Part shown: positions 14,363 to 54,800 of the stretch, piece after piece
Numbering within the stretch: the stretch's first letter is position 1
How the letters are laid out: each line of letters opens with the position of its first letter
NCBI GenBank assembly: GCA_030745755.1
Contig: JASLOA010000034.1
Coordinates: forward strand, 10,071 to 74,070
Direction: 5' to 3'
From: Kiritimatiellia bacterium
GTDB lineage: Bacteria > Verrucomicrobiota > Kiritimatiellia > UBA8416 > JABMPJ01
DNA: 64,000 nucleotides
Notes under the pieces: model-generated
The model's database searches: none
The model's input: only the letters and a program-made list of their open reading frames with translations
What the model was told of the DNA's origin: nothing
Made by a program: the position numbers and the translations under genes

Positions 14363-15079
14363 ATGCCTGAAGAGAGTGCTGTTAATGGTGAGATGACCGA
14401 TGCGGTCATGACATTGCAGGAGGTTGCGGCCTATCTGAAGGTCTCCGAAAAGACCATTACGCGCATGGTGCAGGCGGGGGAACTGCCCGGACTGAAGGTG
14501 TCCAACCAGTGGCGCTTTATCCGTGCGGCAATCGATGACTGGCTGACCCGCCGCATGTACAACCAGGCCAGTGAGCAACTGGCTGAAGTCATCCAACCTC
14601 CCCACGAAGAGCTCTCGCTCCCTCTGCTGCTTACGCCGAACCGCATCATCCTGGATCTTCAGCCGGGGCCGCAGGAAGATGTCCTTGCTCGACTTGTTGC
14701 GCCGTTGATCAAAGAGGGCACGGTCACGGATCCGACCCGCTACATGGCGGCACTGATCGGACGCGAGAAGATCGTATCTACTGCGATCGGCGATGGTGTC
14801 GCGATCCCGCATGCGCGCGATCCGGAACATTCGGCTCTCGCAAAGAGCTGCATGGCGCTGGGCATCTGCCGCGATGGCATGCCGTTTGGAGCGATCGATA
14901 AGAAGCCGACGAAGCTATTCTTCCTGATCGGCGGCACGTCGACCGAGGATCATCTACGCCTGGTGGCGCGGACGATGTTGATGTTACGGAAGCCAGACTT
15001 CATTGATGCTCTGGTGGCAGCTCAAACCAGAGAGGTCGCGTGTGAGCTCGTGGCGACCGCAAGCGGGGTGGGGGCATGA
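14363..15079 (+). CDS. Excisionase/MerR-type HTH domain fused to a PTS EIIA type-2 (PtsN-like) domain
   Basis: N-terminal MTLQEVAAYLKVSEKTITRMVQAGELPG HTH; C-terminal GDGVAIPHAR EIIA-2 active-site motif. Confidence 0.75.
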   Translation: MPEESAVNGEMTDAVMTLQEVAAYLKVSEKTITRMVQAGELPGLKVSNQWRFIRAAIDDWLTRRMYNQASEQLAEVIQPPHEELSLPLLLTPNRIILDLQPGPQEDVLARLVAPLIKEGTVTDPTRYMAALIGREKIVSTAIGDGVAIPHARDPEHSALAKSCMALGICRDGMPFGAIDKKPTKLFFLIGGTSTEDHLRLVARTMLMLRKPDFIDALVAAQTREVACELVATASGVGA

Positions 15080-15143
15080 GTCAGAGGACGTTATGCGGTG
15101 CCAATCCGTTCGGCTGTGAGATGACAATGGCAGGTGGTGAGAG

Positions 15144-16403
15144 ATGAATGGGTTGCCCGTTATGCTTGTGCATTTCAAGGAGGTGCTTGGTGCCCACCCC
15201 ATGTTTGCGGCGGGCCTCCTGCTGATGTCGGGCTATTTCATAGGTAAACTGGCTGCCCGGGTCTGTCTGCCGGAGATTACCGGCTATATCGTGGCCGGTC
15301 TCCTCATGAGCGAGGGGGTCACCGGAGTGTTCTCCGCTGAGATGGGCGAGTCGTTCCGGATCGTAACCGAGGTGGCGCTCGGCCTGATTGCACTGACGAT
15401 CGGGGCCGAGTTCTCGGGTTCCAAGCTGAGGCGGATAGAGGCCAAATCCGTGGTGATTGCCGCTGCGCAGATCGTGGCAACGTTTGGTGCAGTGGCGGGT
15501 GCTCTTCTGCTGATGAAGATGAGTCTGCCTTTTGCACTGTTGTTGGGCGCCATTGCGACGGCCACTGCACCTGCGGCAACGGTAGCGGTCGTGCAGTCCC
15601 TGCGCGCGCGCGGACCGTTCATTGATTATCTCTACGGGATCGTTGCACTCGACGATGCGGGCTGTGTCATTCTCTTCGGAGTGGTCTTCGCCTTTGCCTC
15701 GCAGATGCTTCAGGTCGGTGCGGAAACGGTCCATGCCGGTAGTCAAGTCGTTCATGCGTTTGCCGAGGTGGGGCTTTCGATTCTGATTGGGCTGGTGAGC
15801 GGATACCTGGTGCACAAGGTTACGAAGAATAAGGAAGGCAGCAATGAGATCACGATTCTGTCGGTAAGTATCATTTTTCTGACGACGGCGTTTGCCATCC
15901 AGTTGCACCTTTCGCCGCTGTTGACCAATATGGCGGCGGGCAGTGCGCTGGTAAACCTCTCGGCGCGAAACCATCGCATCTTTCGGATTCTCGAGCCGCT
16001 GACGCCTCCGGTCTATGCGCTCTTCTTCATCATTGCGGGCACCGAACTCGATCTGGGAGTCTTTGCCAATCCGCGGGTGCTGAGCCTGGGCCTGGTGTAT
16101 ATCCTCTTTCGCTCCATCGGGAAATATGGTGGCGTCTGGGTCGGTTGTGCAGCGACCAGGCTTCCGCTTCCGATTCGGGATAACCTTGGATGGTGCATGC
16201 TCCCGCAGGCAGGTGTTGCCATAGGGCTTGTCTTGCTGGTTCAGACCTCTCCGCTTGCCGCAAGCTTGCCGCCAGAAGTCGCCCGAACCATGGGCGATAT
16301 GGTCAATATTGTGCTGCTCTCTGTATTCGTTAACGAGCTGATTGGACCACCCCTTTCGAAATACGCGATCATCCGCGGCAATGGTATGGAGGACGTGCGA
16401 TGA
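15144..16403 (+). CDS. Cation:proton antiporter (CPA1/CPA2, Na+/H+ exchanger family)
   Basis: 419 aa; about 11-12 TM helices; typical Na_H_exchanger composition. Confidence 0.8.
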   Translation: MNGLPVMLVHFKEVLGAHPMFAAGLLLMSGYFIGKLAARVCLPEITGYIVAGLLMSEGVTGVFSAEMGESFRIVTEVALGLIALTIGAEFSGSKLRRIEAKSVVIAAAQIVATFGAVAGALLLMKMSLPFALLLGAIATATAPAATVAVVQSLRARGPFIDYLYGIVALDDAGCVILFGVVFAFASQMLQVGAETVHAGSQVVHAFAEVGLSILIGLVSGYLVHKVTKNKEGSNEITILSVSIIFLTTAFAIQLHLSPLLTNMAAGSALVNLSARNHRIFRILEPLTPPVYALFFIIAGTELDLGVFANPRVLSLGLVYILFRSIGKYGGVWVGCAATRLPLPIRDNLGWCMLPQAGVAIGLVLLVQTSPLAASLPPEVARTMGDMVNIVLLSVFVNELIGPPLSKYAIIRGNGMEDVR

Positions 16404-17218
16404 ACTTCTATGACATTCTAAGTGAACAGAGCTGTATGCCGCATGTGCATGGCAACACGCGTGACGAGGTGCTGCGCTCCCTCGCGCGACACGCCGCCGC
16501 TCTGCCGCAAATGGAGGCGGTCAGCGAAGAAGATATCTACGAAAAGCTGCTGGCGCGTGAAGAGGAGGGCAGTACGGGGTTTGGGCACGGCATGGCCATT
16601 CCGCATGCCCGTTATGCTGCTGCGGATGGATTTGTGTTGCTGATTGCCACCTCACGCAAAGGCGTCGATTTCAGAGCGATCGATAAGAAGAAGGTGAAGG
16701 TCTTCTTCGTGTTGCTTGGGCCCGAGGATGCCCCGCGCGATCACCTGAAAGTACTGGCCGGGATATCGAGTATCGTGTCGCGCTCGAACGTGTGCAGGCA
16801 GCTCGAAGTGTCAGTGACCCCCTCCGCGATGTATGAAGCCTTTATGAGCAAAACCGACGAGAAGCCAGAGGCGGCCCGCGAGGCGATGAAGCTACTGAAC
16901 GTCGTGCTCTACGAGGACAGGTTCTTCTACGATATTATCGAACTCTTCATTGAGGAAGGGATCGATGGCGCGACAATACTCGAGTCCTCGGGCATGGGGC
17001 AGTACATATCCAATATTCCGCTTTTCGCCAGTTTCATGGGCTTCATGAACGAGGATAAGAACCGCAGCCGGACGATTATGGCCACCGTTCCAGAGAGCCG
17101 GGTTGAGAGGCTTATTCGGGGCATCGAAGGCATCACGGGCGACCTCGACAAGAAGCAGGGCGCGATGGTGATGGTGCTCGACGTTGCCTTTACCAAGGGA
17201 AGTATGAAGATGATGTAG
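16400..17218 (+). CDS. PTS EIIA type-2 domain fused to DUF190 (PII-like fold) domain
   Basis: GHGMAIPHAR EIIA motif at the N-terminus; C-terminal ...IIELFIEEGIDGATILESSGMGQ...RTIMATVPESRVERLI matches the DUF190/COG1993 pattern; ATGA overlap with the antiporter. Confidence 0.7.
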   Translation: MNFYDILSEQSCMPHVHGNTRDEVLRSLARHAAALPQMEAVSEEDIYEKLLAREEEGSTGFGHGMAIPHARYAAADGFVLLIATSRKGVDFRAIDKKKVKVFFVLLGPEDAPRDHLKVLAGISSIVSRSNVCRQLEVSVTPSAMYEAFMSKTDEKPEAAREAMKLLNVVLYEDRFFYDIIELFIEEGIDGATILESSGMGQYISNIPLFASFMGFMNEDKNRSRTIMATVPESRVERLIRGIEGITGDLDKKQGAMVMVLDVAFTKGSMKMM

Positions 17219-17221
17219 GGG

Positions 17222-17500
17222 CGCTCCGAGGAGGGGGAGCCTTCCTTGGCTGGACGCGTCCTGCGGACGCGAAAGGCCTGCGGAAGGCTCCCCCTCCTCT
17301 CCGCTTGGGTTAGTGATGCAGGGGCGCTCTCCGGGCTGGAGCACTGCCTCGCTTCGCTCGGCCTGCTAGGCCTCGGAGAGCACCCCTGCTCCTTCGCTTG
17401 GGGTAGGATGAGACCCGGGGCGAGATGTCTTCTGTCTCGACTGCCTGGCCTCGGAGCGTACCCCTGTTCCTTCGCTTGGGGTATGAGGATCGGGGGCGCT
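17222..17500. repeat. Perfect 18-bp inverted repeat (gaggagggggagccttcc / ggaaggctccccctcctc) followed by imperfect tandem ~65-bp repeats (…cctcggag.g.acccctg.tccttcgcttggggta.ga…)
   Basis: Read directly; lies between convergent genes. Confidence 0.6.
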
Positions 17501-18266
17501 ACAGGAACGGGTAGAGCACGCTCAGGATCATGACGTGCGCGAAGTGGTAGAGCACATCCACCCGTTCTTCAGGCCGCGCATGGTGGCGGGCTACGTTGTA
17601 GGTTTCCCATGCGGCGCGACGGTAGGCGGAGCCGTTCTTCGATTCGCTATGCCAGCGGAATGAGGCGAGTGTCTGGTCGATGAATACCGGATCGCTTTCA
17701 CGTCCGAGGCGCAGCCAGTAGTCGTAATCCATGGCCATGTGCAGCTTGAGGCCAATCTGGCCGATCCTCTCGTAGGCGGCACGCGAGAAGAAGGTCGCCG
17801 GCTGCGAGATGAAGTCGCGCCGCAGCAAATGCCGATAGCTGTACCCTAGACTCTGTTTCCGTTTGTAGCGGGTGATGACCTGGCGAATCTCCGTGTCATT
17901 CTCGTCGATGTTACGGCAGTTCCCGAAACACCAGTCAAACGGACTCGCGTTGTAGGCCTCGGCAACGGCCTGGAGCGCACCGGGCTCGTAGAGATCGTCG
18001 GAATTGAGCCACGCGATCACATCACCGTCGGTATCGTCGAATCCCCGGTTGATGGCATCGCTCTGCCCTTCGTCAGGTCCCGATGTCCAGCGAAGTCGCT
18101 TGTCATTTTCGAAACGCCGCAGCACGGCCAGGGTTCCGTCGGACGACCCGCCATCCATAACGCGCAACTCCAGCTCGAAATCGCCCTCCTGCGACAGAAT
18201 GCTCTGCAGCGTGCGCTCGATGAAGTTGCCCTGGTTGTAGGACGGCGTGATGATGGAGAATTTCAT
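17499..18266 (-). CDS. Family-2 glycosyltransferase
   Basis: FSIITPSYNQGNFIERTLQSILSQ ... DGGSSDGT ... GT2 motifs. Confidence 0.8.
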   Translation of the reverse strand: MKFSIITPSYNQGNFIERTLQSILSQEGDFELELRVMDGGSSDGTLAVLRRFENDKRLRWTSGPDEGQSDAINRGFDDTDGDVIAWLNSDDLYEPGALQAVAEAYNASPFDWCFGNCRNIDENDTEIRQVITRYKRKQSLGYSYRHLLRRDFISQPATFFSRAAYERIGQIGLKLHMAMDYDYWLRLGRESDPVFIDQTLASFRWHSESKNGSAYRRAAWETYNVARHHARPEERVDVLYHFAHVMILSVLYPFL

Positions 18267-19693
18267 GCCTTGCCCTTCTTAAGCACCTGCAGAAAAGCCA
18301 AAAAGCCCTGGAACGTTGCCCAGGCAGCGCGCGGACGGGCGGCGAGGTGCATGAGTTGGCGGAGGATGATGCCGGGGCGGAAGTAGAAATCACGCATCAG
18401 GTGGGCATGCGCCGCTTCGAGCGTTTCCTTGGTGAAGCCGTCGGGAACGAAGGTGGCTTCGAGGGTCGTCATCTTGCGCCAGTCGCAGTTGAAGGTGCCC
18501 ATCCCGGCCACCGTGTTGTAGATCTCCGAGCCGGGGAATGGCTGCAGGAGCATCACGCTGATATCGTCGAGCGGCAATGAGAGCGCCAGGTCGCGTGTGG
18601 CCGCAATGGTTGCCTCGGTTTCGCCGGGGAAGCCGACGATGAAGAACCCCTTGGTCTGAAGGCCCGCCGCGCGGCTCCATTCGAGCGCCTGGCGGATCTG
18701 CGGAATATCAAGGTTCTTGTTGACGCTCTTGAGAATATCGGCGTCACCACTCTCGATGCCGTACGTGATGTGCCAGCAGCCTGCCCGGCGCATGAGCTTC
18801 AACAGATCCGGCTTCACGCGATCGGCGCGGCCGAGGCATGACCAGGTGATATCGATCTTCTGTTCAAGCAGAAGCTCGCAGAACTCGGCTACGCGCTTGC
18901 GGGAGATGATAAACGTGTCGTCTTCGATCAAAATCTCGCGCACACCAAACTCCTCGCGCAGCTGCTTGACCATGCGCACGGCATAAGCGGGCGTGTAGGC
19001 GCGGCACATGCGCCCGAAGACGGAGCGGTCGCAGAAGGTGCATTGGTTGGGACAGCCGCGGGTCAGAACCACCGACGCGCAGGGCCAGCGACGGATGCGC
19101 GCGGGGGAGGGACGGAAAGCCTGCGGAAAGCCGTCGAGCAGGTCCCAGGCAGGCAGGGGAAGCGTATCCAGCTCGTGAATCAGGTCGCGTGGCGGGTTGT
19201 GGTGAAGGGCGCCGTCCCGTCGCTCGACCGTACCGACGATGCCGCTGGGCAGGGGCTGTCCGCCCTCCACGGTGCGGAGGATATCAACCAGCGTCACTTC
19301 GCCCTCGCCGATTACGGCCAGGTCAAAGCCGGGGCAGCTTTCGAGCGTGTCGTCCGGCAGGGAGGTGCCGTGACATCCGCCGATGAGGACCAGGATCTCC
19401 GGTTGCTTCTCCTTGATGCGCGCGGCCAGCGCGGCGGCGTCTTCGATGCCGGAGGTGGTGGCCGTGAGACCGACTACGGTCGGTCGAAACTCAAGGACAC
19501 GCTTCAGTGTCTCGCCCAGAGGCAAGTTGCCTGCCGCCGCTTCAACGATGGCAACCGCCGCTCCGGCCTCACGGGCGCTGGCGGCCAGGCAGGCGAGTCC
19601 GAACGACGGTTCGGTATTGGCGGCACCGGCAAAGGCACCGTAGCGTTCCTCCAGTGATACCGGAGCAGTGGCGAGGACAAGACGTGTCTTCAT
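18263..19693 (-). CDS. B12-binding-domain radical SAM protein (class B)
   Basis: N-terminal Rossmann-like B12-binding region; CPNQCTFC (CxxxCxxC) radical SAM cluster; 4-nt overlaps on both sides. Confidence 0.85.
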   Translation of the reverse strand: MKTRLVLATAPVSLEERYGAFAGAANTEPSFGLACLAASAREAGAAVAIVEAAAGNLPLGETLKRVLEFRPTVVGLTATTSGIEDAAALAARIKEKQPEILVLIGGCHGTSLPDDTLESCPGFDLAVIGEGEVTLVDILRTVEGGQPLPSGIVGTVERRDGALHHNPPRDLIHELDTLPLPAWDLLDGFPQAFRPSPARIRRWPCASVVLTRGCPNQCTFCDRSVFGRMCRAYTPAYAVRMVKQLREEFGVREILIEDDTFIISRKRVAEFCELLLEQKIDITWSCLGRADRVKPDLLKLMRRAGCWHITYGIESGDADILKSVNKNLDIPQIRQALEWSRAAGLQTKGFFIVGFPGETEATIAATRDLALSLPLDDISVMLLQPFPGSEIYNTVAGMGTFNCDWRKMTTLEATFVPDGFTKETLEAAHAHLMRDFYFRPGIILRQLMHLAARPRAAWATFQGFLAFLQVLKKGKA

Positions 19694-20079
19694 GAGGTGG
19701 ATGTGTCGGCTTCGTCGGGCGTGACGTCAGATTCCGGCGGATGTTCGCCACGAAGCAGCGCGATCTCCTGCGAGAGCTTTTTGATCTGGCGGCGATGTTG
19801 GGAAATGACCAGCGAGAACTGGAGCGTCATGAGCAGAAGGACAGAGAACGCGATGAGAAAAAGCGTGGTGGTGATGGTGACCGCGCCGATCAGGTCGGAC
19901 AAATGCACCAGCCAGTCGTAGCGTATCACAACCAGCAGCGCGCCGACCGCAATCCCGATCCAGATCCAGCAATAGGCAATATCGAGGCGTCCTTTTTGCA
20001 CGAGCCGGATGATGAGTCCGAGCAGGGCAAGCCCGAGAATGATGGAAGCAACGAACTGCCGTGGTTGGATCATACTCAT
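19690..20079 (-). CDS. DUF2304 small membrane protein
   Basis: Four hydrophobic helices plus charged C-tail; start MSMIQ gives an ATGA overlap with the upstream GT stop. Confidence 0.6.
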   Translation of the reverse strand: MSMIQPRQFVASIILGLALLGLIIRLVQKGRLDIAYCWIWIGIAVGALLVVIRYDWLVHLSDLIGAVTITTTLFLIAFSVLLLMTLQFSLVISQHRRQIKKLSQEIALLRGEHPPESDVTPDEADTSTS

Positions 20080-20849
20080 GATAGTGCTCCCTGCGAGGAG
20101 GACCGGATGCGCCATTGTCGCCACTGGAAAACGTTAAGCAGCACCATGAAGAGCGAGAGCAGCATCTTGATGGCATAGTAGATCGGCTTGAGACCTGAAT
20201 GCATGGACGCGCCCCCTTCGCGGGAACGCATGCTGACGGGCAGTTCCTTGACCTTCAGGCCCGCCATGTGGGCCATGACAATGACGTCGGAGTCGGGGTA
20301 GTCGCAGGGGAACACGCCGCTGGAGAAGAACGTGATGGCGCGCCGGGATAGCGCTTGCATGCCCGAGGTGGGGTCGGTGGTTCTCAGACCGGTGAGCACG
20401 CGGATGATACCGGCAAAGAGCGCGTGTCCAGCTCGCCGTATGACCGGCGTCTCGGGGTCAGGCCCGTTGAGATGACGTGAGCCGCTCGCGATATCGGCTT
20501 CCCCGTTGCGGACCGCCGCCAAGAGTGGGGGGAGCTGGTCCGGCGGATGCTGGCCGTCGGCATCGATCTGGAGGACCGGGCCATAGCCATTGCGGTTGGC
20601 GTAGAGATAGCCGGTTTCGAGTGCGGCGCCGTAGCCCAGGTTGCAGCCGTGGGAGAGCACGATGGCGCCGGCCGCGCGCGCGATGCGGGCCGAGTCGTCT
20701 GTCGAGGCATCGTCGATGACCGCAATGCCCGCCTCGGGGATGGCGCGCTTGAGGTCTTCGATCACAGCGGCGACACGTGGCCCCTCGTTGTAACAGGGCA
20801 TCAGAACCAGCGGGCGATACAGTGCGTCAGTGTCCATGAGTAGAGGCAT
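20076..20849 (-). CDS. GT2 polyprenol-phosphate sugar transferase (DPM1/ArnC/GtrB-like)
   Basis: VLMPCYNEG ... IDDASTDD ... DADGQH motifs; start set at MPLLMD because the upstream ORF extension is the family-3 element. Confidence 0.75.
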   Translation of the reverse strand: MPLLMDTDALYRPLVLMPCYNEGPRVAAVIEDLKRAIPEAGIAVIDDASTDDSARIARAAGAIVLSHGCNLGYGAALETGYLYANRNGYGPVLQIDADGQHPPDQLPPLLAAVRNGEADIASGSRHLNGPDPETPVIRRAGHALFAGIIRVLTGLRTTDPTSGMQALSRRAITFFSSGVFPCDYPDSDVIVMAHMAGLKVKELPVSMRSREGGASMHSGLKPIYYAIKMLLSLFMVLLNVFQWRQWRIRSSSQGALS

Positions 20850-20924
20850 GGTAGCGGGATAGGGCAGTGAGTGTAAAGGCTGTGGTGTGCTTGTGTGGTG
20901 CTTGTGAATGGGGCGAGACCCGGG

Positions 20925-21120
20925 GAGTGCCAAGAACTCGGCGCGAAATGCGGCGGCGATCTCACGCCATCTGCCGGTTTTTCGGAGGCTTCGCGGGCAG
21001 GAGCCCTGCGAATCCTCCGAGAAAACCGCCATCTGGCGCAAGCTTGCCACCGCATTTCGCTCAATCCGAGTTCTTGGCACGTTTCACACACCGCGCCGCC
21101 CTTGCGGGCGGACCGCGGTG
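20925..21120 (+). repeat. Family-3 element, copy 2
   Basis: Aligns to 13939-14131 with compensatory stem changes; lies in a divergent intergenic region. Confidence 0.6.
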
Positions 21121-21226
21121 TTGAATTGCGGAAGCGCCCGCTGCGCGGGCTCATCTTTCACCTGCCGCGGGTTGGGCGCGGAGACACATCATTGCACCTA
21201 TTCAGTAGACGTGGTAGTCTTACGCC

Positions 21227-21487
21227 ATGCCTGAGATTTGTAGATTCCTTGGTATTGTTATTGCGATTTACTGGAAAGAGCATGGCGTTCCCCATTTTCA
21301 TGCGAAGTACCAGGGCTGTCGTGCCTCTTTCGCTATTGAGGACTTCCGGTTGCTTGAGGGTAAGCTTCCGCCGCGGGTTACCGGCCTAGTGCTTGAGTGG
21401 GCGGCTTCCCATCGCGACGAGCTCCTCGGGGACTGGGAACTGGCCATGCAGAAGAAGCCGCTCAAACGCATCGCGCCACTCGAATAG
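21227..21487 (+). CDS. DUF4160 family protein
   Basis: MPEICRFLGIVIAIYWKEHGVPHFHAKY... characteristic N-terminus. Confidence 0.7.
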   Translation: MPEICRFLGIVIAIYWKEHGVPHFHAKYQGCRASFAIEDFRLLEGKLPPRVTGLVLEWAASHRDELLGDWELAMQKKPLKRIAPLE

Positions 21488-21497
21488 GAGTTAATCC

Positions 21498-21818
21498 ATG
21501 CACTATATCACTGGGGTGTCATACGAAGAAGGCTACACGTTGAGGCTGGTGTTCGAAGACGGTAGCTGCCGCCGGGCGGACCTGAGAGACCATCTTGACG
21601 GTGAAGTGTTTGAACCGCTGAGGAATCCTGAAGAATTCCGGTCCGCGCACTTAAACGAGGATATTGATACCGTTGTCTGGGACAATGGCGCAGACATGTC
21701 CCCGGATTTTCTATATGAGATATCCGAGCCCGTTGAAGACAGTGAACTGGCGCGGGTAGCCGAGACAGAAGCCCGATACGGTAACTCGCCTGCCGCCGGA
21801 TCCGAGACAGGACACTAA
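21498..21818 (+). CDS. DUF2442 family protein
   Basis: ITGVSYEEGYTLRLVFEDGSCRRADLRDHL... pattern; cognate partner of DUF4160. Confidence 0.7.
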   Translation: MHYITGVSYEEGYTLRLVFEDGSCRRADLRDHLDGEVFEPLRNPEEFRSAHLNEDIDTVVWDNGADMSPDFLYEISEPVEDSELARVAETEARYGNSPAAGSETGH

Positions 21819-23068
21819 TGCCGGAACGAGCGTTGCCCGGTGTAGACCATGGCGACGCCGGCTTCGTTGCAGGCTTCGATGGTTTCGAAGTCGCGGGCGG
21901 AGCCGCCGGGTTGTACGACGGCGGTGACGCCTTCGCGGATGCCTACTTCGACACCATCGCGGAACGGGAAGAAGGCGTCGGATACCATGGCGCTGCCCTT
22001 TAGGCCGCCCCTGGCGTCCGTCACGGCTGCGTCGATGTCCCTGCGTGTGGCATCGTCCTTGAGTGTATTGTAGGGGATGCCGTGCTGTTCCCAGCAGAGG
22101 CGGTCGGCCAGCTTGCGATAGGCTTTGTCACGGGCGATTTCGGCTACACCAACACGATCCTGCTCGCCGGTGCCGATGCCGACTGTGACGCCGTCCTTGA
22201 CGTAGAGTACGGAGTTGCTGGTGACGCCGGCTTCGACCATCCAGCCGAAAAGTAGATCCTTGAGTTCCGCTTCGGTGGGTTGACGGTTGATGGTGTACTC
22301 GTCGCCCTTGTAGGTCGTCACGGCGGGAAGGAAGTCATCCACGCTACGGGCCTCGGGCTGGAAGGACCACTGCACCACCATGCCGCCATCGATCAGACTC
22401 TTGAAGTCGACCACGCGCTGCGTGGCGTAGTCCTGCAGGCGCCCCATGTTGCCGATGCGCATCACGCGCAGGTTCTTCCTGGTGGCGAAGATGTCCATGA
22501 CACCGTCCGCAAACTCGGGGGCGATGACGACTTCGGCGTAATTCTTGACGATCAGCTCGGCTGTTTTCTTGTCGCACTCGCCGTTGAGTGCAATGGCGCC
22601 GCCGAAGGCGGCCAGGCGGTCGGCCATGTTGGCCTTGTCATAGGCATCCGCCAGCGAGTCGCCCAGTGCGCATCCGCACGGGTTGTTGTGCTTCATGATG
22701 ACGACTGCGGGCTCGTCGGTCAGGTAGCGCAGAATGTTGAGGGCGCTGTCGGCGTCGGTGATATTGATCTTGCCGGGGTGCTTGCCGGACTGCAACAGCT
22801 CGGCATTGGAGGCGAGGTGTTGTCCGGGTTGAATGGCCGTTACCTCGCCGAGGGTCAGGTTGCCGTTGACGAGGCGGTACAGCGCGGCTTCCTGGCCGGG
22901 GTTCTCGCCGTAACGCAGCCCCTTGTCCACACCGTCGATCTGCCAACTGTTCTTCTCGAAACAAAGGGTCTGGCGCTCATCGCCATCGATGAAGGAAATC
23001 TCCATCTGTGGCGGGAAGTGGTCATCCATGATGGTCTTATACGCAGCTTTGAAATCAGTCTGGCTCAT
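21815..23068 (-). CDS. AICAR transformylase (PurH C-terminal AICARFT domain) protein lacking the N-terminal MGS/IMP-cyclohydrolase domain
   Basis: LRYGENPGQ start of the AICARFT domain about 50 aa from the N-terminus; 417 aa total. Confidence 0.75.
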   Translation of the reverse strand: MSQTDFKAAYKTIMDDHFPPQMEISFIDGDERQTLCFEKNSWQIDGVDKGLRYGENPGQEAALYRLVNGNLTLGEVTAIQPGQHLASNAELLQSGKHPGKINITDADSALNILRYLTDEPAVVIMKHNNPCGCALGDSLADAYDKANMADRLAAFGGAIALNGECDKKTAELIVKNYAEVVIAPEFADGVMDIFATRKNLRVMRIGNMGRLQDYATQRVVDFKSLIDGGMVVQWSFQPEARSVDDFLPAVTTYKGDEYTINRQPTEAELKDLLFGWMVEAGVTSNSVLYVKDGVTVGIGTGEQDRVGVAEIARDKAYRKLADRLCWEQHGIPYNTLKDDATRRDIDAAVTDARGGLKGSAMVSDAFFPFRDGVEVGIREGVTAVVQPGGSARDFETIEACNEAGVAMVYTGQRSFRH

Positions 23069-23091: not shown

Positions 23092-23165
23092 TGGAGCGGG
23101 CGAGGGGAATCGAACCCCTATAGTCAGCTTGGAAGGCTGAAGTTCTACCATTGAACTACGCCCGC
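23092..23165 (-). tRNA. tRNA-Gly (anticodon UCC), CCA encoded
   Basis: GCGGGCGTAGTTCAATGGTAGAACTTCAGCCTTCCAAGCTGACTATAGGGGTTCGATTCCCCTCGCCCGCTCCA; clean cloverleaf, U33, A37, discriminator U. Confidence 0.9.
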
Positions 23166-27693: not shown

Positions 27694-29115
27694 ATGGGTA
27701 AACGGGACACATCGGATGTAGTGGACAGCCTCGTGGCGGTGGTGGCGGATGCCGTCGCCGTCGTGCTGGGGATGTACCTGGCGGTATGGGTGCGTTTCGA
27801 CAGCGGCTGGCTGCCGATTCCCTTTGGCCGACATCCCGACATCTACATGGAGTATACCAGCGGCATCCTGTTGGTGGTGCCCATCTACCTGCTGATCTTC
27901 CGCTCGCTGGGGCTCTACGTTCGTCCGCAGATCGGCCGGTTCGAGGATAAGATCCCGCGCCTGGTGCGCGCATCCGGTCTCTGCCTGGTGGCCGCGATGG
28001 TGCTTGCGTTTGTGTTCAAGAACATCGTGGAGTACTCCACGATGGCCATCTTTGCTTCGGTGGCCACGGTCACGCTGCTGGTCGTGCTGGAGCGCTATGT
28101 TCTGTTCCGGCTCGAGCTGCACTATGCCCGGCACAGCACTGCCATCAACCGGGTTTTGATACTGGGAACCGACCCCGTGGCGGCCCATCTGAAACGGTCG
28201 CTGGAGAACGAGCCGAAGCTCCGCTCCCGCGTGGTGGGTTTTCTGCGCACGGATCTCTCCGAACCGGACGCCGATATACCGCGTGACCTGGTGAAGGGAA
28301 CCATCGACGAGCTGGCCGCGGTCGCGCTGCTGGAAGAGGAAGATAAGGTGGACCAGATCATTCTGACCAACTCGGTGATTGGACACCAACGCATTGTCGA
28401 TATCATCCTGTTCTGCGAGCGCGAGCTGATCCGCTTCAACATGGTTCCCGACCTGTTTCGTATTCTGACGAGCAACATGGATATGCAATCGGTCGATGAT
28501 ATCCCCATGCTGGGCATCAGTCAGTGGCCGTTGGATCACTTCTGGAAAAGGGTCCTCAAGCGAAGCGAGGATATCATCGGCTCCCTGCTGGGCCTTCTCG
28601 TCTCCGCTCCCGTGATAGCCATCGCCGCCGTGCTGATTAGGCGGGAGTCCCCCGGTCCGATCTTCTATGCCCAGGAACGCTGTGGCGAGAAGGGGGAGCC
28701 TTTTCCGATCTACAAGCTGAGAACGATGCGGACGGACGCGGAGTCGGAGAGTGGCCCGGTCTTCACGGCCGAGGAAGACCCGCGTGTGACGCGCATCGGG
28801 CGGTTCCTGCGGCGTCACAACCTCGACGAGTTGCCGCAGTTCTGGAACGTGCTTCGCGGCGAGATGAGCCTGGTAGGCCCCCGCCCCGAGCGGCCCCATT
28901 TTGTGGAGAAGTTCAAGGAAGACATCGGTCGCTACATGTGGCGTCATGTGTCGAAGCCCGGCGTGACCGGTTGGGCCCAGGTGAACGGGCTGCGGGGCAA
29001 TACTAGCATTGAGGAACGAATCAAGTACGACCTCTACTATCTCGAGAACTGGTCGCTATCGCTTGATTTCAAGATCCTGGTGAAGACGTTTATGGCGCGC
29101 GAGAATGCGTATTGA
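27694..29115 (+). CDS. Polyprenyl glycosylphosphotransferase (bacterial sugar transferase, WbaP/WcaJ-like)
   Basis: C-terminal ...LRTMRTDAE...DELPQFWNVLRGEMSLVGPRPE... sugar-transferase signature. Confidence 0.85.
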   Translation: MGKRDTSDVVDSLVAVVADAVAVVLGMYLAVWVRFDSGWLPIPFGRHPDIYMEYTSGILLVVPIYLLIFRSLGLYVRPQIGRFEDKIPRLVRASGLCLVAAMVLAFVFKNIVEYSTMAIFASVATVTLLVVLERYVLFRLELHYARHSTAINRVLILGTDPVAAHLKRSLENEPKLRSRVVGFLRTDLSEPDADIPRDLVKGTIDELAAVALLEEEDKVDQIILTNSVIGHQRIVDIILFCERELIRFNMVPDLFRILTSNMDMQSVDDIPMLGISQWPLDHFWKRVLKRSEDIIGSLLGLLVSAPVIAIAAVLIRRESPGPIFYAQERCGEKGEPFPIYKLRTMRTDAESESGPVFTAEEDPRVTRIGRFLRRHNLDELPQFWNVLRGEMSLVGPRPERPHFVEKFKEDIGRYMWRHVSKPGVTGWAQVNGLRGNTSIEERIKYDLYYLENWSLSLDFKILVKTFMARENAY

Positions 29116-29134
29116 GAGAGTGTGAGAGTGTGAG

Positions 29135-29611
29135 GTGACTATGCAAGGCGGTTTTTCTGAACTATTCTTCTCGGCCTGTTTCTGGTCGGCGTTTGCCTCA
29201 TGGATGGTGGCCCAGTGCACCAAGATGATCTGCGGATTCCTGGAGACGAAGCGCTTCGACTTCCACTACCTGGTCAGTACGGGCGGCATGCCCAGTGCAC
29301 ACAGTGCCAGCGTAGGCGGGCTGGCGACATCCGTGGGACTACTGGAAGGATTCGGCTCTCCCCTCTTCGTTGTGGCGCTCGGGTTCGCCTTGATCACAAT
29401 GTTCGATGCCTCGACGGTGCGCCGTGCCGCGGGCCTGCAGGCCACCCTGCTCAACCAGATCGTCGACGAGTTGTTCAAGGAGCACCATCTCTCGGAGAAG
29501 AAGCTGGCCGAGTTGCTCGGCCACACTCGGCTGGAGGTGTTCATGGGGGCCACGGTAGGCGTCTTTGTGGGAATGATCGTCACAGTTAGGGCCATGATGA
29601 TGGGCATGTAA
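29135..29611 (+). CDS. Divergent PAP2 (DUF212) family membrane protein
   Basis: GGMPSAHSA motif. Confidence 0.7.
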   Translation: MTMQGGFSELFFSACFWSAFASWMVAQCTKMICGFLETKRFDFHYLVSTGGMPSAHSASVGGLATSVGLLEGFGSPLFVVALGFALITMFDASTVRRAAGLQATLLNQIVDELFKEHHLSEKKLAELLGHTRLEVFMGATVGVFVGMIVTVRAMMMGM

Positions 29612-29632
29612 GGATAAAGGAGAGAGACTACC

Positions 29633-30853
29633 TTGAAAGTCAGAGCCTTTAGAGGGGTGCATCCAACGGCAGACGTGGCCGCCCAGGTCGCCAGTGTACC
29701 GTATGATGTAGTAAACGCGGAGGAGGCACGTGAGATGGCTGCGGGGAATCCTCACAGTTTCTTGCACGTGGTCCGGGCCGAGATCGATCTAGCCGAGGAC
29801 GCCGACCATTACTCATCCGAGGTCTATCAGCAGTCGGCCCGTGCCCTGGCCAGGATGCGGGCCGACGGTGTCCTGGTGCAGGACCAGGATCGGCAGTTGT
29901 ACGTCTATGAGCTGACCATGGGGGACCATGCCCAGTGCGGCGTTGTGGCCTGCTGTGCGGTCTCGGACTATGACGACGGTACGATCAAGCGGCACGAGCA
30001 GACGCGTGAGGAGAAGCTGCGCGATCGCGTCACGCTGGTCGATACGCTCGGCGCCAACAGCGGCCCCGTATTTCTGACCTACCGGGATTCGGCCGGTGTC
30101 GACGCCCTGGTTGCCCAGGCGCGTGCGACGGAGCCCTTGATCAGTCTGGAGCGCGAGAACGGCAATCGTCACACGATCTGGACCGTTCCGGTGCCGGCGG
30201 ACATGGAGGCGGCCTTCGCCAGGGTACCGGCGGCCTACATTGCGGACGGGCATCATCGCGCTGCCGCCGCCGCCGAAGTGGCCAAGCTTCGTCGCGACAG
30301 AAATCCAGAGATGGATAATGCCGGAAGCGACTGGTTCCTGACCGTACTCTTTCCTGCCAGCCAGATGCGCATCATGCCCTATAACCGCGTGGTGCATGAT
30401 CTGAACGGCCGCACCTCTGCTGAATTCCTTGAGGCGCTGTCCGGCGTGGGCGACGTGAGTTCGGGGAGCGCCGAGGTGCCGGAGACCCGTGGGAGCGTGG
30501 GCATCTATATCGAAGGACAGTGGCATCGCTTGACCTGGCATGAGGGCGTGGTCGACCCGTCCGATGAAGTGGGACGGCTGGATGTGAGTGTGTTGCAGTC
30601 GCGCGTCCTGGAACCGGTCCTGGGCATAGCCGATCCGCGGCGCGATGAACGTATCGCTTTCGTGGGCGGTATCCGCGGCATCGGTGAGTTGGAGCGGCTG
30701 GTGGATGGCGGGGAGGCGGCCGTGGCGTTTGCGATGCATCCGGTAGAGGTCGAAGATCTTATCGCGGTCTCAGACGCCGAACGCCTGATGCCCCCCAAGA
30801 GCACCTGGTTTGAACCGAAGTTGCTTTCAGGTCTTCTTGTCCATGTGTTCTGA
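29633..30853 (+). CDS. DUF1015 family protein
   Basis: C-terminal MPPKSTWFEPKLLSGLL DUF1015 signature; TTG start after SD aaggagag. Confidence 0.75.
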   Translation: MKVRAFRGVHPTADVAAQVASVPYDVVNAEEAREMAAGNPHSFLHVVRAEIDLAEDADHYSSEVYQQSARALARMRADGVLVQDQDRQLYVYELTMGDHAQCGVVACCAVSDYDDGTIKRHEQTREEKLRDRVTLVDTLGANSGPVFLTYRDSAGVDALVAQARATEPLISLERENGNRHTIWTVPVPADMEAAFARVPAAYIADGHHRAAAAAEVAKLRRDRNPEMDNAGSDWFLTVLFPASQMRIMPYNRVVHDLNGRTSAEFLEALSGVGDVSSGSAEVPETRGSVGIYIEGQWHRLTWHEGVVDPSDEVGRLDVSVLQSRVLEPVLGIADPRRDERIAFVGGIRGIGELERLVDGGEAAVAFAMHPVEVEDLIAVSDAERLMPPKSTWFEPKLLSGLLVHVF

Positions 30854-39918: not shown

Positions 39919-40336
39919 TCCGAGAGAGTTTTTGCGAACAATGCCAGGGGCACCAGACCCATGTTATTCTGGTACCGGACCGCGCGAGGTCAGACGTTGA
40001 GATGGTAGACCGACAGCGCGGATGATGCGAATGAAGATGGGACTTTCGGGTAGGAAGCCATCTATGAGACCAAGGATTCAGTTAGTCACTAAAAGAGGAC
40101 GGTGAGCCGACAGACAGAGTCCACATTGACATAAGGTATTTGAAATACCCTGCCTTGTTCGCTAACAGGCAAAAATCTCTAACCTTCTATTGTATTAGGG
40201 AGCTTGAATACGGCGTGGAGCGGATTCGCAAGAATCCCGGAAGCGACGACTAGAGCACCCACCTCGAATGCGAGGTTTAAGAGATTAACGCCCTTACGAT
40301 TATGGTGGGGTATTTTTCTGCCCCGTGGAAACGGAT

Positions 40337-51855: not shown

Positions 51856-54800
51856 ATGACCATGAGAAGAACACGTGTAATCATCACTGTACTCGTTACG
51901 TTGCTCATCGCTGCAGGAACACCGGCTATGGCTGGGTTCTGTGTACACGATGGTGCAACCGTATCCCCTGACCCAAGCGGAACGGTGTATCCATGGACGC
52001 GTCTCGCAGTCTATTTCAACATGGGGTATGCGGATGATTACTCCCACATTGCCGAGGCGTACCTTCGATACACGTTTGATGACTCGACTTGGAATAACAC
52101 GAGTGGAGTCCTTGCAGATGCTGGCGAGAACGATGGTTCTGGAAATTCTAGCTGTGGCGAAGGAGACAACTGGAGGGTTAAGGGCCACATACCAGCGCCT
52201 GGGCGGAACTCTAGCAGCAGCAACTTCAAGTTTACGTACTATGGCCGAAACAGTTGGGATCCTGGGGATTGGAGATTTGAAGCGTGGGCAATCTCTGGCT
52301 ACGATGCCAACACAGGAAATGTGCAGTGGGATTCAGATGGAGCTTTTCACGACCCAAGCACACAGGTAGACGGTAAGAGCTACTATTACGTGACGCGCCA
52401 GGGGGAGGACGCTACGACGACGAGTTTCTATGATGACGAGGTAGCCGTTCTTCGCGCACGTGCCTTCAAGGAAGATGTCAGCGTCCTGACCCTGCGACAC
52501 ACCGGAAATTGGTCGGGTACGGCCATGACCTATCTCTCTGGTGCGGACCATGATAACGAGACTGACTTTGACGATTCCTACACGGTCGAGTTCTGGGAAG
52601 GAGCTCTGTCCGGTGACGATTGGTCGACCGCCATCGATAGCTACGGCGGTACGTTGTCATACAACATCAAGTACACGGACAACGGGTCGCCGAACGACGA
52701 AGACTATCTCAAGTCCGGAGGTATGGCAGACGGAGCTGGCGACGGCACCGATTTCACGATCACGGTGCAGGACGATGATACGACCGCGCCGCAGTTCGTG
52801 AAGGAGTCGGGCACTGTGGACACGTATGGTCCCATGCGGATACTCTTGGACACCGATGATCTGCGAGAGCGTGGGAACGGCCTGGGAACAAAAGAGTTCG
52901 ATGTCACGGATAATGACCTTGCCAGTTTGAGCAGCGACAACAAGCTTATATTCAAATTCGCCGCCTACGATGCGGAATCCGGTTTGCAGCGAAGCAGAAC
53001 TGGCGGCTCCAGCACGAACATGAGCTACGACATTGGAACGATGGCTGGATTCTTACAGGACCTTAACGGAACCTATGTTGCGAGCAGTTCATCGGCCGGC
53101 ACCAACTCGGCCACGGCGAAGTGGAGCGTGTTCGAACACACAAACGCTTTCCAAAAAGCCGAAATCACGCAGCTCTATACGAATATGCTGCAGGGGTCTC
53201 AGGGGAAGAACAAGATCCGGTGCTCGATCTATGACGCTGATCATGACCGCACCGGGGATGCGAGATATGACGAAGACGACCAAATGGGCTACCTCAATGT
53301 GCTCGATCAGGACAGCGCCGCCCCGACAATCGTGAAGATAGGATCACCCGAAGAGTCTGCTAAACGATACCTGCATGCCTCACTCGGGGGGACAGTGCTC
53401 TCCAGCTCCGGCCCAGCCAACACCAACAAGATCTACACGATCACGGATAGCGAACTCGCGGGCGTGAATGGCAGTGGCAATGAGTTGAAGCTGTATTTTG
53501 GCGCCATCGATGCGGGTTCCGGCCTCGCGCGTAGCGCCGGTGGGTCGGCCGACACCGATATGAACATCGATATCGGACCGGTCATTACGGACAACTACGC
53601 GCAGTATGACAGCGGCCTGAGCACCGATTTCGAGGGGACGAAGTCTGGCAAGGCGACTAATGCCTGGAAGTTCATCGATTTCACCGACTCCCAGATCGAG
53701 AACCTGTTGACCAATGCGGTTGGCGGTGTAGGCACCAATCTGGTAGCCGCCTCGTTGATCGATACGGATGACGATCGCGACGACGACCGCTCGATTCTGA
53801 CGAATCAGCAGTACGGATTCCTCGTGGTGAGCGACGACGATCCCGACGCGCCCACGCTTGAGGGGATGCGCGTAGACTACAACGGGAGTGAGCTTTCGAA
53901 TTCCGGAAGTGGCACGAATGTGATCTACACAGTCACCGACGCGCAGCTCTCGGACATTTCTGGCAAGACGCTGGCATTCAAGTTCGCGGTATGGGACGCC
54001 AGTGGGCTCTCCCGCAACAACGTCGATAACTTCCTGGAAGACATGAACTACGATATCGGCACCGATTACACGGGGGACCTGTCTGAGCTGGACAATATAA
54101 ATGTGACCTACTCGGCGGGTGACTCCGCCGCCGGTACCAACTCGGGAACGGCCGAGTACAGCGTGTTCATCCATAACGGCAACTTCGAGCGGCCGGAGAT
54201 CGCACACCTCGTTGCCGAGGACGACCAGGGAACAACCGGCAAGAACGCGATCCTGATCTCTGCTCCGGATAATGATCGCGACTACGGAACTGCTGATCAG
54301 GCTTGGCGTGCGAACGAGCGGATCGGTTTCCTGCAGGTCAACGACGATGATCCGGACGCGCCGGTGTTAGCTAACCCGACCTGGATAAATGATAAGCTGC
54401 GCATGGACATCACGGATGCCGGTAGCGGCCTTGGTTCCCCTATCTATATGGAATATGACGACAATGCGTTCATCTACGGTGCGCACAACACGGTGGGTAT
54501 GACAAATATCGGGGGCGATACCTACGAGATGTTGATCGCCGTCGATACGAACTACGTGCCAGGCAAGACGATCTACTACCGCGTTTTTGCCCCCGACGCT
54601 GACGACGAGTATGATGGCGATGCGGCACAGGGCGTCTACAGCAACACCACGCTATTCGGACTCGATGCCCCCGTTGCCAGCGCGGCTACGTCCACGAATG
54701 ACACCAGCTTCACCGCATCCTGGGCAGCCGTGACCGGGGCGGACGATGGGTATCGGCTGGATGTGAGTGTTTCGGCCGTATTTGAAGGTCCGATCGATAC

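Follow-up and report, generated by a model that had tools for sequence, protein, structure and literature searches.

A B12-binding radical SAM protein in a conserved polyprenyl-phosphate glycosyltransferase cassette of a Kiritimatiellia bacterium, a candidate for tailoring lipid-linked sugars

Introduction

Why is a gene for a B12-binding radical S-adenosylmethionine (SAM) protein wedged between a lipid-carrier glycosyltransferase gene, accompanied by its DUF2304 partner, and a second glycosyltransferase gene? The question is raised by a four-gene cassette on contig JASLOA010000034.1 of a Kiritimatiellia bacterium (GenBank assembly GCA_030745755.1), which we analyzed within a stretch of 64,000 nucleotides, positions 10,071 to 74,070 of the forward strand, hereafter called the window. 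We refer to the four products as GT2a (a family 2 glycosyltransferase, GT2), the DUF2304 protein, rSAM and GT2b. An earlier note on this stretch, written from the letters alone, had suggested that the radical SAM enzyme could methylate or otherwise modify a lipid-linked sugar or glycolipid headgroup. The proposal that rSAM modifies a lipid-linked sugar is strengthened here by linkage to GT2a and DUF2304 genes in 48 of 80 loci, by a varying glycosyltransferase gene after rSAM, and by fusions of rSAM relatives to sugar enzymes; its chemistry and exact substrate we infer. Taken together, we see about an even chance that the four genes are a single operon for the cytoplasmic half of a polyprenyl-monophosphate glycosylation pathway, a module resembling WpsA/WpsB/WpsC in which rSAM tailors the first lipid-linked sugar.

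Results

Four overlapping genes

The cassette spans 17499-20849 on the minus strand, where four open reading frames (ORFs) follow one another head to tail over 3.35 kb. Their positions and the features discussed below are as follows.

20849 to 20076, minus strand: GT2a, 257 aa; Pfam GT2
20550..20564, minus strand: metal/nucleotide-sugar motif D96-A-D98-G-Q100 of GT2a, read directly
20076..20079, minus strand: ATGA overlap of the GT2a stop and the DUF2304 start, read from the sequence
20079 to 19690, minus strand: DUF2304 protein, 129 aa; Pfam DUF2304
19690..19693, minus strand: ATGA overlap of the DUF2304 stop and the rSAM start, read from the sequence
19693 to 18263, minus strand: rSAM, B12-binding radical SAM protein, 476 aa; Pfam B12-binding and Radical_SAM
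19280..19624, minus strand: B12-binding (Rossmann) domain of rSAM, residues 24-138; PF02310, 9.2e-20, 71.1 bits against a cut-off of 32.1
18587..19072, minus strand: radical SAM core of rSAM, residues 208-369; PF04055, 1.1e-26, 94.5 bits, above the cut-off
19031..19054, minus strand: [4Fe-4S]/SAM motif CPNQCTFC of rSAM, residues 214-221 (C214, C218, C221), invariant in 32/32 aligned family members
18263..18266, minus strand: ATGA overlap of the rSAM stop and the GT2b start, read from the sequence
18266 to 17499, minus strand: GT2b, 255 aa; Pfam GT2

All four annotations given by the earlier note (polyprenol-phosphate GT2, DUF2304, B12-binding radical SAM, GT2) hold by Pfam. It had also described overlaps of 1-4 nt; all genes do overlap, and the range narrows to 4 nt (ATGA) at every junction. 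GC content at third codon positions is raised to 0.72-0.78 in the four genes, against about 0.60 overall, which supports the view that all four ORFs are coding. The cassette is a self-contained unit, with neighbors on the opposite strand on either side.

A putative polyprenyl-phosphate sugar synthase and its partner

GT2a (Glycos_transf_2, 6.9e-22) has an ambiguous start: besides 20849, ATG codons at 20837 and 20801 are possible, and the protein is 253 or 241 aa long in public gene calls; the start at 20801 would truncate the first beta-strand of the GT2 fold. Its best NCBIfam matches are PpgS (8e-24), a halobacterial dolichol-phosphate (Dol-P) hexose transferase, AglJ and ArnC, every one below the equivalog cut-off. 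Because GT2a reaches 84.3 bits against the PpgS model NF058614, far under the cut-off of 370, we regard it as a homolog of PpgS and not as an equivalog. Its only sequence relatives in the PDB are the Pyrococcus Dol-P-Man synthase (DPMS, 5mlz) and ArnC, both of which are polyprenyl-phosphate glycosyltransferases. The D96/D98/Q100 positions are the same as D96/D98/Q100 of WpsA and have their DPMS counterpart in D89/D91/Q93 (PMC10821137); GT2a is likened to WpsA by these motif positions.

GT2a has one C-terminal hydrophobic helix, at about residues 220-240, and lacks the two transmembrane (TM) helices of the GtrB type. Like the short proteins of about 230-260 aa that adjoin a DUF2304 gene, it is therefore better described by another class than the DPM1/GtrB-like one proposed earlier: the assignment as a lipid-carrier glycosyltransferase stands, and the GtrB type gives way to the short GacI/WpsA/PpgS type. 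GT2a is accordingly a putative short polyprenyl-phosphate sugar synthase of this type, predicted to transfer an N-acetylhexosamine (HexNAc) from UDP-HexNAc. The DUF2304 protein (4.1e-21; 75.7 bits, with the cut-off at 25.5) is a membrane protein of small size that has three to four hydrophobic helices, four hydrophobic segments being found in its sequence. Other DUF2304 proteins, GacJ, Rv3632 and WpsB, were shown experimentally to bind and strongly stimulate their GT2 partners (WpsB: PMC10821137), and the cassette protein is probably an activator of GT2a of this GacJ/WpsB/Rv3632 type.

A class B radical SAM protein outside the characterized families

The architecture of rSAM, an N-terminal B12-binding domain followed by a radical SAM core with a CxxxCxxC motif, is that of class B enzymes. 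Family-invariant residues of the B12-binding domain include G105, G106 and H108 as well as E130, G131 and E132. Binding and use of cobalamin are thus predicted from the domain; the domain by itself is not proof, because AprD4, the nearest relative of known structure, does not rely on cobalamin.

No curated NCBIfam model reaches its cut-off with rSAM. The scores descend from HpnJ (188.5 bits) through ApyD (179) and BchE (172) to the P- and C-methylases (at most 134) and AprD4 (112). As an HpnJ (TIGR03471), rSAM was rejected at 188.5 bits against a cut-off of 577.6, and no hopanoid genes (hpn/shc) were found in the window to provide the corresponding context. BchE (TIGR02026) was rejected at 171.9 bits against 481, and the AprD4-family diol dehydratases (NF033070) at 112 bits against 500, with a match limited to residues 141-430. 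Scores for PhpK, HpnR and MgmA were also far under their NCBIfam cut-offs. The profile searches hence place rSAM in none of the characterized families.

An AlphaFold2 model of rSAM built from a 32-sequence alignment has a pLDDT of 84.6. Its nearest structures by Foldseek are AprD4 (6fd2; TM-score 0.73-0.76, 24% identity), then MgmA, TsrM, OxsB, TokK and CysS. A profile search of PDB sequences agrees with this, AprD4 again being best at 133.6 bits. Four further cysteines outside CxxxCxxC, namely C205, C272, C286 and C306 (about 18776-19081, minus strand), are invariant in 32/32 sequences and might coordinate an auxiliary cluster or be part of the active-site lining. The family also keeps a basic amphipathic C-terminal tail, which fits an enzyme working at the membrane surface.

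The family is large. A word-indexed search returned more than 1592 homologs at E<=1e-10, of which the best 120 are 55-96% identical to rSAM and nearly all 453-508 aa long. In an exhaustive search of 1.84 billion representatives, relatives formed a smooth continuum, with more than 150 clusters (50% identity) at 300 bits or more and 10459 matches at E<=1e-30. Public annotation of the homologs is generic, BchE or YgiQ, and many family members carry the JGI label 'anaerobic Mg-protoporphyrin IX monomethyl ester cyclase', which the BchE score does not support.

A variable glycosyltransferase after rSAM

GT2b (Glycos_transf_2, 1.5e-26) is a soluble protein of the GT-A fold with no TM segment. It has weak NCBIfam matches to TuaG and WcaE, and its relatives of known structure in the PDB, chondroitin synthase, SpsA, TarS/TarP and PglI, are glycan-extending enzymes. 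We propose that GT2b may be an elongating enzyme resembling WpsC.

In most related loci the gene after rSAM encodes a glycosyltransferase, whose family changes by lineage. GT2b itself occupies this position in loci of the Planctomycetes-Verrucomicrobia-Chlamydiae (PVC) group and in a few others, and an unrelated GT2 of 340-350 aa does so in most of the remaining loci. A family 4 glycosyltransferase (GT4) follows rSAM in three loci (L010, L021, L023; loci are cited by our own numbers) and follows GT2b in two (L009, L014). Nonorthologous glycosyltransferases at one conserved position are the pattern described in lactococci for wpsC, a strain-variable gene downstream of wpsA/wpsB whose product elongates GlcNAc-P-C55 (GlcNAc, N-acetylglucosamine) on a monophosphate carrier (PMC10821137).

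Conservation of the cassette

Scanning one genome per species, we found 210 rSAM-encoding loci and fetched 80 of them with flanks of up to 7 kb; the counts that follow refer to these 80. Neighboring genes were classed by per-query phmmer searches in which the queries were the window proteins plus a few others. The loci span at least 10 phyla, mostly of anaerobes (PVC, Syntrophales, Desulfobacterota, Geobacterales, Nitrospirota, Chloroflexota, Omnitrophota, Acidobacteriota, Bacteroidota, Planctomycetota, Fibrobacterota and Armatimonadota). Nearly all are from metagenome-assembled genomes (MAGs) of anoxic settings, and one is from a cultured strain, Pelotalea chapellei DSM 13688 (L071).

A GT2a homolog is present in 58/80 loci, a DUF2304 gene in 50/80 and both together in 48/80; in 51/80 a GT2 gene starts no more than 300 nt past the rSAM stop on the same strand. 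In 32 loci the upstream DUF2304 gene has its end no farther than 14 nt from the start of rSAM, with the 4-nt overlap present in 20 of these; a 4-nt overlap between rSAM and the gene after it is found in 24 loci. Since this adjacency, 4-nt overlaps included, recurs in dozens of loci and in other phyla, the arrangement is more than chance. DUF2304 genes are rare, at an estimated one or so per genome, and the chance of meeting one in a 14-kb stretch would then be well below 1%; the linkage to GT2a and DUF2304 is by this estimate not accidental. In three loci from Desulfonema, Nitrospira and Thermodesulfovibrionales (L047, L051, L065) the genes stand as two divergent pairs, an independent rearrangement that preserves the four-gene set. 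The gene order on which the earlier proposal depended is thus widely conserved elsewhere. Its description of the arrangement as unusual is apt relative to the systems studied so far, but among anaerobes the arrangement is common.

Fusions in distant relatives

Several distant relatives of rSAM (numbered P) are fused to other enzymes. Fusions to YdjC occur in two separate clusters (P0183, P0214), the former on two independent contigs. Others join rSAM to a DegT aminotransferase (P0203), a GT2 (P0225) or a class I methyltransferase (P0133, P0159), and P0151 and P0198 are giant proteins with several radical SAM parts. YdjC enzymes are known to deacetylate lipid-linked HexNAc: NaxD acts on undecaprenyl-phosphate-linked N-acetylgalactosamine (Und-P-GalNAc), and HpnK acts ahead of HpnJ. 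An rSAM::YdjC gene lies between a methyltransferase gene and the gene for a GT2 of 243 aa, whose alignment with GT2a is weak but full-length, and genes for class C glycosyltransferases (GT-C) of the PMT_2 family flank both sides. The neighbors of rSAM::DegT encode a GtrB/ArnC-type GT2 (IDSDLQNDP, C-terminal TM helices), an asparagine-synthase-type amidotransferase, further radical SAM proteins and a PMT_2 GT-C. The fusions consistently place the rSAM family in sugar tailoring, beside polyprenyl-phosphate GT2s and GT-Cs.

An 886-aa frame joining rSAM to a complete GT4 domain (P0121; L025 = L091, 356-3016) was set aside. Either a genuine fusion or the loss of a stop codon could explain it, and we do not count it as firm evidence because it comes from a single contig.

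Giant relatives (P0151, already mentioned, and P0153, P0236, P0270) measure 1879-2331 aa; P0151 carries several radical SAM modules and SPASM, and the others have multiple matched stretches. Relatives also lie in clusters of four or more radical SAM genes (L089, L090). Such clusters and giants point to very heavily tailored products.

Additional genes at related loci

Many loci add a class I SAM methyltransferase gene and one to three more B12-binding radical SAM paralogs, which score at most 243 bits to rSAM, against at least 430 for orthologs. Many also add genes for short-chain dehydrogenase/reductase (SDR) epimerase/dehydratases, a UDP-sugar dehydrogenase, carbamoyl- or acetyltransferases and a Wzx-type flippase.

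Between one and four polytopic membrane proteins bearing tetratricopeptide (TPR) repeats at the C terminus are encoded in 33/80 loci. Their membrane domain shows FxFDD, invariant in the first loop, and the motifs RxxxxLTFxLN, HPLQTxAVTYIxQR, TKExxxT and FEHRxY, which resemble M1 (DD), M2 (SHKSYRPLCVLTSFRLN), M4 (KE[T/Q]xxT) and M7 (ERxxY) of TMTC proteins. Pfam gives only weak matches to TMTC_DUF1736 (4/31 members) and PMT_2 (2/31 members, best 2e-8). A PDB sequence search with the N-terminal membrane domain returned zero matches, and the full-length profile was swamped by TPR. These are probably GT-C enzymes, as judged from their motifs. In one locus (L058), consecutive genes encode rSAM, a GT2, Wzx, another GT2, GT2a, a DUF2304 protein and a GT-C/TPR protein, which by predicted function is every part of a Wps- or Gac-like multicomponent system plus rSAM.

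Some loci have further distinctive neighbors. In Lentisphaerae and Kiritimatiellia (PVC loci L004/L085, L009, L010, L012, L014, L086 and others), the cassette and a divergent GT-C/TPR gene stand amid type II secretion system (T2SS) E/F genes, together with genes for a sigma-54 response regulator, a PAS protein and several prepilin-type (N_methyl) proteins. Pilins or pseudopilins could be glycosylation targets there. We leave pilin glycosylation as an idea, T2SS and prepilin genes being absent from the window; such genes are abundant in PVC genomes. In Geobacter and relatives (L049, L052, L070), genes for NHL-repeat proteins, a multiheme cytochrome-like protein and a Pfam-less protein of 760-780 aa, possibly an outer-membrane barrel, precede the module; the modules of these loci and of L071 include a SPASM radical SAM protein, a hexapeptide acyltransferase and a DUF218 protein. 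An Anaerolineae locus (L034, 4030-5928) has a NodU/CmcH-type carbamoyltransferase, another sugar-tailoring enzyme, directly upstream of GT2a.

Surroundings in the window

The window sequence is identical to contig JASLLN010000002.1 of MAG GCA_030747025.1, and its nearest labeled relatives are Victivallales, Kiritimatiellia and Verrucomicrobia MAGs. Downstream of the cassette lie convergent plus-strand genes (14363-17218) for an HTH_17 and PTS_EIIA_2 fusion, an Na+/H+ exchanger and a second PTS_EIIA_2 protein, the last two overlapping by 4 nt (16400/16403); this trio suggests EIIA-type regulation of a cation antiporter. Upstream, on the plus strand, a DUF4160 (86 aa)/DUF2442 (106 aa) pair at 21227-21818, whose layout resembles that of toxin-antitoxin pairs, stands between the 5' end of the cassette and an AICARFT-like gene, beyond which housekeeping genes follow.

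A scan of 17000-21900 for promoters and terminators gave matches no more numerous than in shuffled sequence, and an Rfam search of the whole window found no cobalamin riboswitch or other RNA element upstream of the cassette. The only Rfam matches in the window are a 6S RNA at 40144-40315 (plus strand, 66.6 bits) and a tRNA at 23095-23165 (minus strand). The 64-kb window holds no homologs of the GT-C/TPR, methyltransferase or second radical SAM genes of related loci. About 7 kb from the cassette (27694-30853, plus strand) is a gene for a polyprenyl-phosphate sugar-1-phosphate transferase (Bac_transf and CoA_binding_3), with DUF212 (divergent PAP2) and DUF1015 genes after it; the transferase could initiate a separate glycan, linked through a diphosphate. 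A 1259-aa ORF with no Pfam match (51856-55635, plus strand) is situated where the GC content of the window is lowest (0.55-0.57, compared with about 0.60).

Discussion

A proposed pathway

The findings can be assembled into a pathway of four steps. By homology, GT2a would move a sugar from a UDP donor to polyprenyl phosphate, with the DUF2304 protein keeping it at the membrane and activating it; the sugar would most likely be a HexNAc, as for GacI/GacJ, WpsA/WpsB and PpgS/Rv3632. Linkage and fusions suggest that rSAM would then act on the lipid-linked sugar, its 5'-deoxyadenosyl radical taking a hydrogen from an unactivated ring carbon. In the favored outcome methylcobalamin would donate a methyl group, and the product would be a sugar with a C-methyl branch; the main alternatives that would keep the anomeric phosphate usable are epimerization and dehydration to a keto-deoxy sugar. 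GT2b would subsequently add a second sugar, much as WpsC does on GlcNAc-P-C55. The last step would depend on genes that stand beside the cassette in relatives, outside this window: a Wzx-type flippase would export the lipid-linked glycan, and a TMTC/PMT_2-like GT-C with periplasmic TPR repeats would transfer it to an envelope acceptor, possibly a protein.

Our preference for C-methylation is a prior and not a finding. Most characterized class B radical SAM enzymes are methylases, several paralogous B12-binding radical SAM genes occur per cluster, and the GT-C linkage implies that the anomeric phosphate must stay intact; we count all three for methylation. That AprD4, the nearest fold, acts on a sugar we count for a sugar substrate.

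Several observations weigh against this pathway. The best family scores of rSAM are with nonmethylases, HpnJ, ApyD and BchE standing above the P- and C-methylases, and its best fold match is a B12-independent dehydratase; these top matches carry little information, because paralogs match the same models equally well. No residue-level signature that we can read in rSAM appears to fix its substrate or chemistry, and the enzyme may act before or after GT2b. The fusion proteins are only 37-41% identical to rSAM, and their substrates may differ. About one quarter of the loci have no GT2a within 7 kb, some of them being truncated by contig ends. No flippase or GT-C gene stands near the cassette in the window or in its three closest relatives (L001-L003); none was found in the entire 64-kb window, which by itself does not encode a complete multicomponent transmembrane glycosylation system.

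Alternative explanations

The absence of a flippase and a GT-C from the window would also be compatible with a terminal glycolipid. rSAM might contract the ring of a lipid-linked (amino)hexose to a five-membered carbocyclic cyclitol, as HpnJ or Cds would, yielding an acid-stable polyprenyl-phospho-cyclitol glycolipid that GT2b extends and that is itself the membrane end product. HpnJ is the best NCBIfam match of rSAM (188.5 bits) and works with the GT2 HpnI and the YdjC deacetylase HpnK, rSAM relatives are fused to YdjC, and Cds provides a second precedent on a lipid-linked hexose. The score is nevertheless one third of the HpnJ cut-off, and paralogous B12-binding radical SAM proteins of the same loci reach 208 bits, so that the match is best regarded as generic, the paralogs scoring as well or better. 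The cassette has no deacetylase, and the GT-C genes in 33/80 loci, together with Wzx, argue for a product that can serve as a glycosyl donor, as a carbocycle cannot. We consider ring contraction quite unlikely. Chemistry like that of AprD4 or of a dehydrogenase would instead leave a keto (deoxy) sugar on the carrier, with no methyl transfer, and the ketone would be reduced or transaminated by enzymes encoded elsewhere. AprD4 is the best relative of known structure by both sequence profile and fold, a DegT-type sugar aminotransferase such as that fused to one relative needs a keto-sugar, and SDR epimerase/dehydratase genes are frequent in related loci. The similarity is confined to the radical SAM core (residues 141-430), however, while the N-terminal domain of rSAM is a canonical and highly conserved B12-binding domain, and the four-gene cassette includes neither a reductase nor an aminotransferase; a keto-sugar product of this kind seems rather unlikely.

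Whichever reaction is catalyzed, rSAM could act before lipid loading, on a nucleotide sugar or soluble precursor, leaving GT2a to move a sugar already modified. Two arrangements would suit this order: in L086 genes for a UDP-sugar dehydrogenase and for two SDR enzymes separate DUF2304 from rSAM, and in L044, L046 and L054 three SDR genes and a cupin gene come after rSAM. Yet the tightest and most conserved coupling of rSAM is to the membrane protein DUF2304 and the following glycosyltransferase, the YdjC fusion parallels enzymes working on lipid-linked sugars, and the C-terminal amphipathic tail is conserved, all of which make action before loading distinctly unlikely. Finally, the substrate might be no carbohydrate at all: rSAM, only coregulated with the glycosylation genes, could act on the polyprenyl chain, on another lipid, or on a peptide or protein, for instance a glycosylation target. 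B12-binding radical SAM enzymes do methylate hopanoids and peptides, the second-best family match, ApyD, is an enzyme of ribosomally synthesized and posttranslationally modified peptides, and PVC relatives sit amid pilin and T2SS genes. Against this, every fusion found joins a carbohydrate enzyme or a methyltransferase, precursor-peptide or isoprenoid genes are not conserved nearby, and the linkage persists over at least 10 phyla despite otherwise different neighbors. We regard a noncarbohydrate substrate as very unlikely, and the tailoring of a lipid-linked sugar by rSAM remains the reading we prefer.

Significance and comparison with known systems

Extending that reading beyond the window, we consider it possible, at somewhat short of an even chance, that the cassette is the minimal core of a branch of envelope or protein glycosylation, as yet undescribed, in many anaerobic phyla, in which cobalamin radical SAM enzymes carry out C-H chemistry on polyprenyl-phosphate sugars and TMTC-like GT-C/TPR proteins transfer C-methylated, deoxygenated or rearranged donors to periplasmic targets. 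If so, the radical SAM step would be a new chemistry for lipid-linked glycan donors, and a role would be assigned to a large family of B12-binding radical SAM proteins often labeled BchE or YgiQ in public databases. Kiritimatiellia, Lentisphaerae, Syntrophales, Geobacterales, Nitrospirota and others would be predicted to bear unusual branched or deoxy sugars on their envelopes. The GT-C/TPR proteins linked to the cassette suggest bacterial counterparts of the eukaryotic TMTC O-mannosyltransferases.

In the open-access literature we found no paper tying DUF2304, GacI or polyprenyl-phosphate systems to a radical SAM enzyme. The closest system overall is WpsA/WpsB/WpsC of the Lactococcus polysaccharide pellicle, where a short GT2 and a DUF2304 protein make sugar-P-C55, as the cassette would (PMC10821137). 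A downstream cytoplasmic glycosyltransferase of variable family follows, and then a Wzx flippase and a GT-C, the latter two seen in relatives of the cassette such as L058. The Wps system differs in having no radical SAM enzyme, whereas the host of the cassette is a Gram-negative PVC anaerobe and the GT-C proteins of its relatives are TMTC-like, with TPR repeats. Similarly, GacI/GacJ/GacK/GacL of Streptococcus pyogenes and PpgS/Rv3632 of Mycobacterium tuberculosis use a GT2 and a DUF2304 protein to make HexNAc-P-polyprenol for a GT-C on the outside, but the monosaccharide transferred is unmodified or deacetylated, and neither a radical SAM enzyme nor a second cytoplasmic glycosyltransferase takes part.

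Among radical SAM systems, HpnI/HpnK/HpnJ of hopanoid cyclitol ether synthesis offers the nearest logic, a GT2 attaching GlcNAc to a lipid, after which the lipid-linked sugar is remodeled by a radical SAM enzyme of the B12 type; the lipid of the cassette would instead be polyprenyl phosphate, and the chemistry of HpnJ is itself unproven. AprD4, a radical SAM 1,2-diol dehydratase (6fd2), acts on a soluble aminoglycoside and needs the reductase AprD3. GenK, Fms7 and MoeK5 share the class B architecture of rSAM and methylate unactivated sugar carbons (PMC9204698). They are actinomycete secondary-metabolite enzymes and have no family-level match to rSAM. MoeK5 works on a sugar linked to a phosphoglycerate lipid.

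Tailoring of a sugar on undecaprenyl phosphate before GT-C transfer, as proposed here, has its precedents in ArnC/ArnD/ArnT and FlmF2/NaxD/FlmK, but the Arn and NaxD steps are hydrolytic (a deformylase and a deacetylase), not radical. To our knowledge, the known tailoring reactions of sugars on undecaprenyl or decaprenyl phosphate are all hydrolytic or redox (ArnD, NaxD, DprE1/E2). The parts of the cassette are therefore of known kinds, and tailoring of sugars on the carrier is known from ArnD and NaxD; a radical SAM enzyme doing so, within a widely conserved module, would be new.

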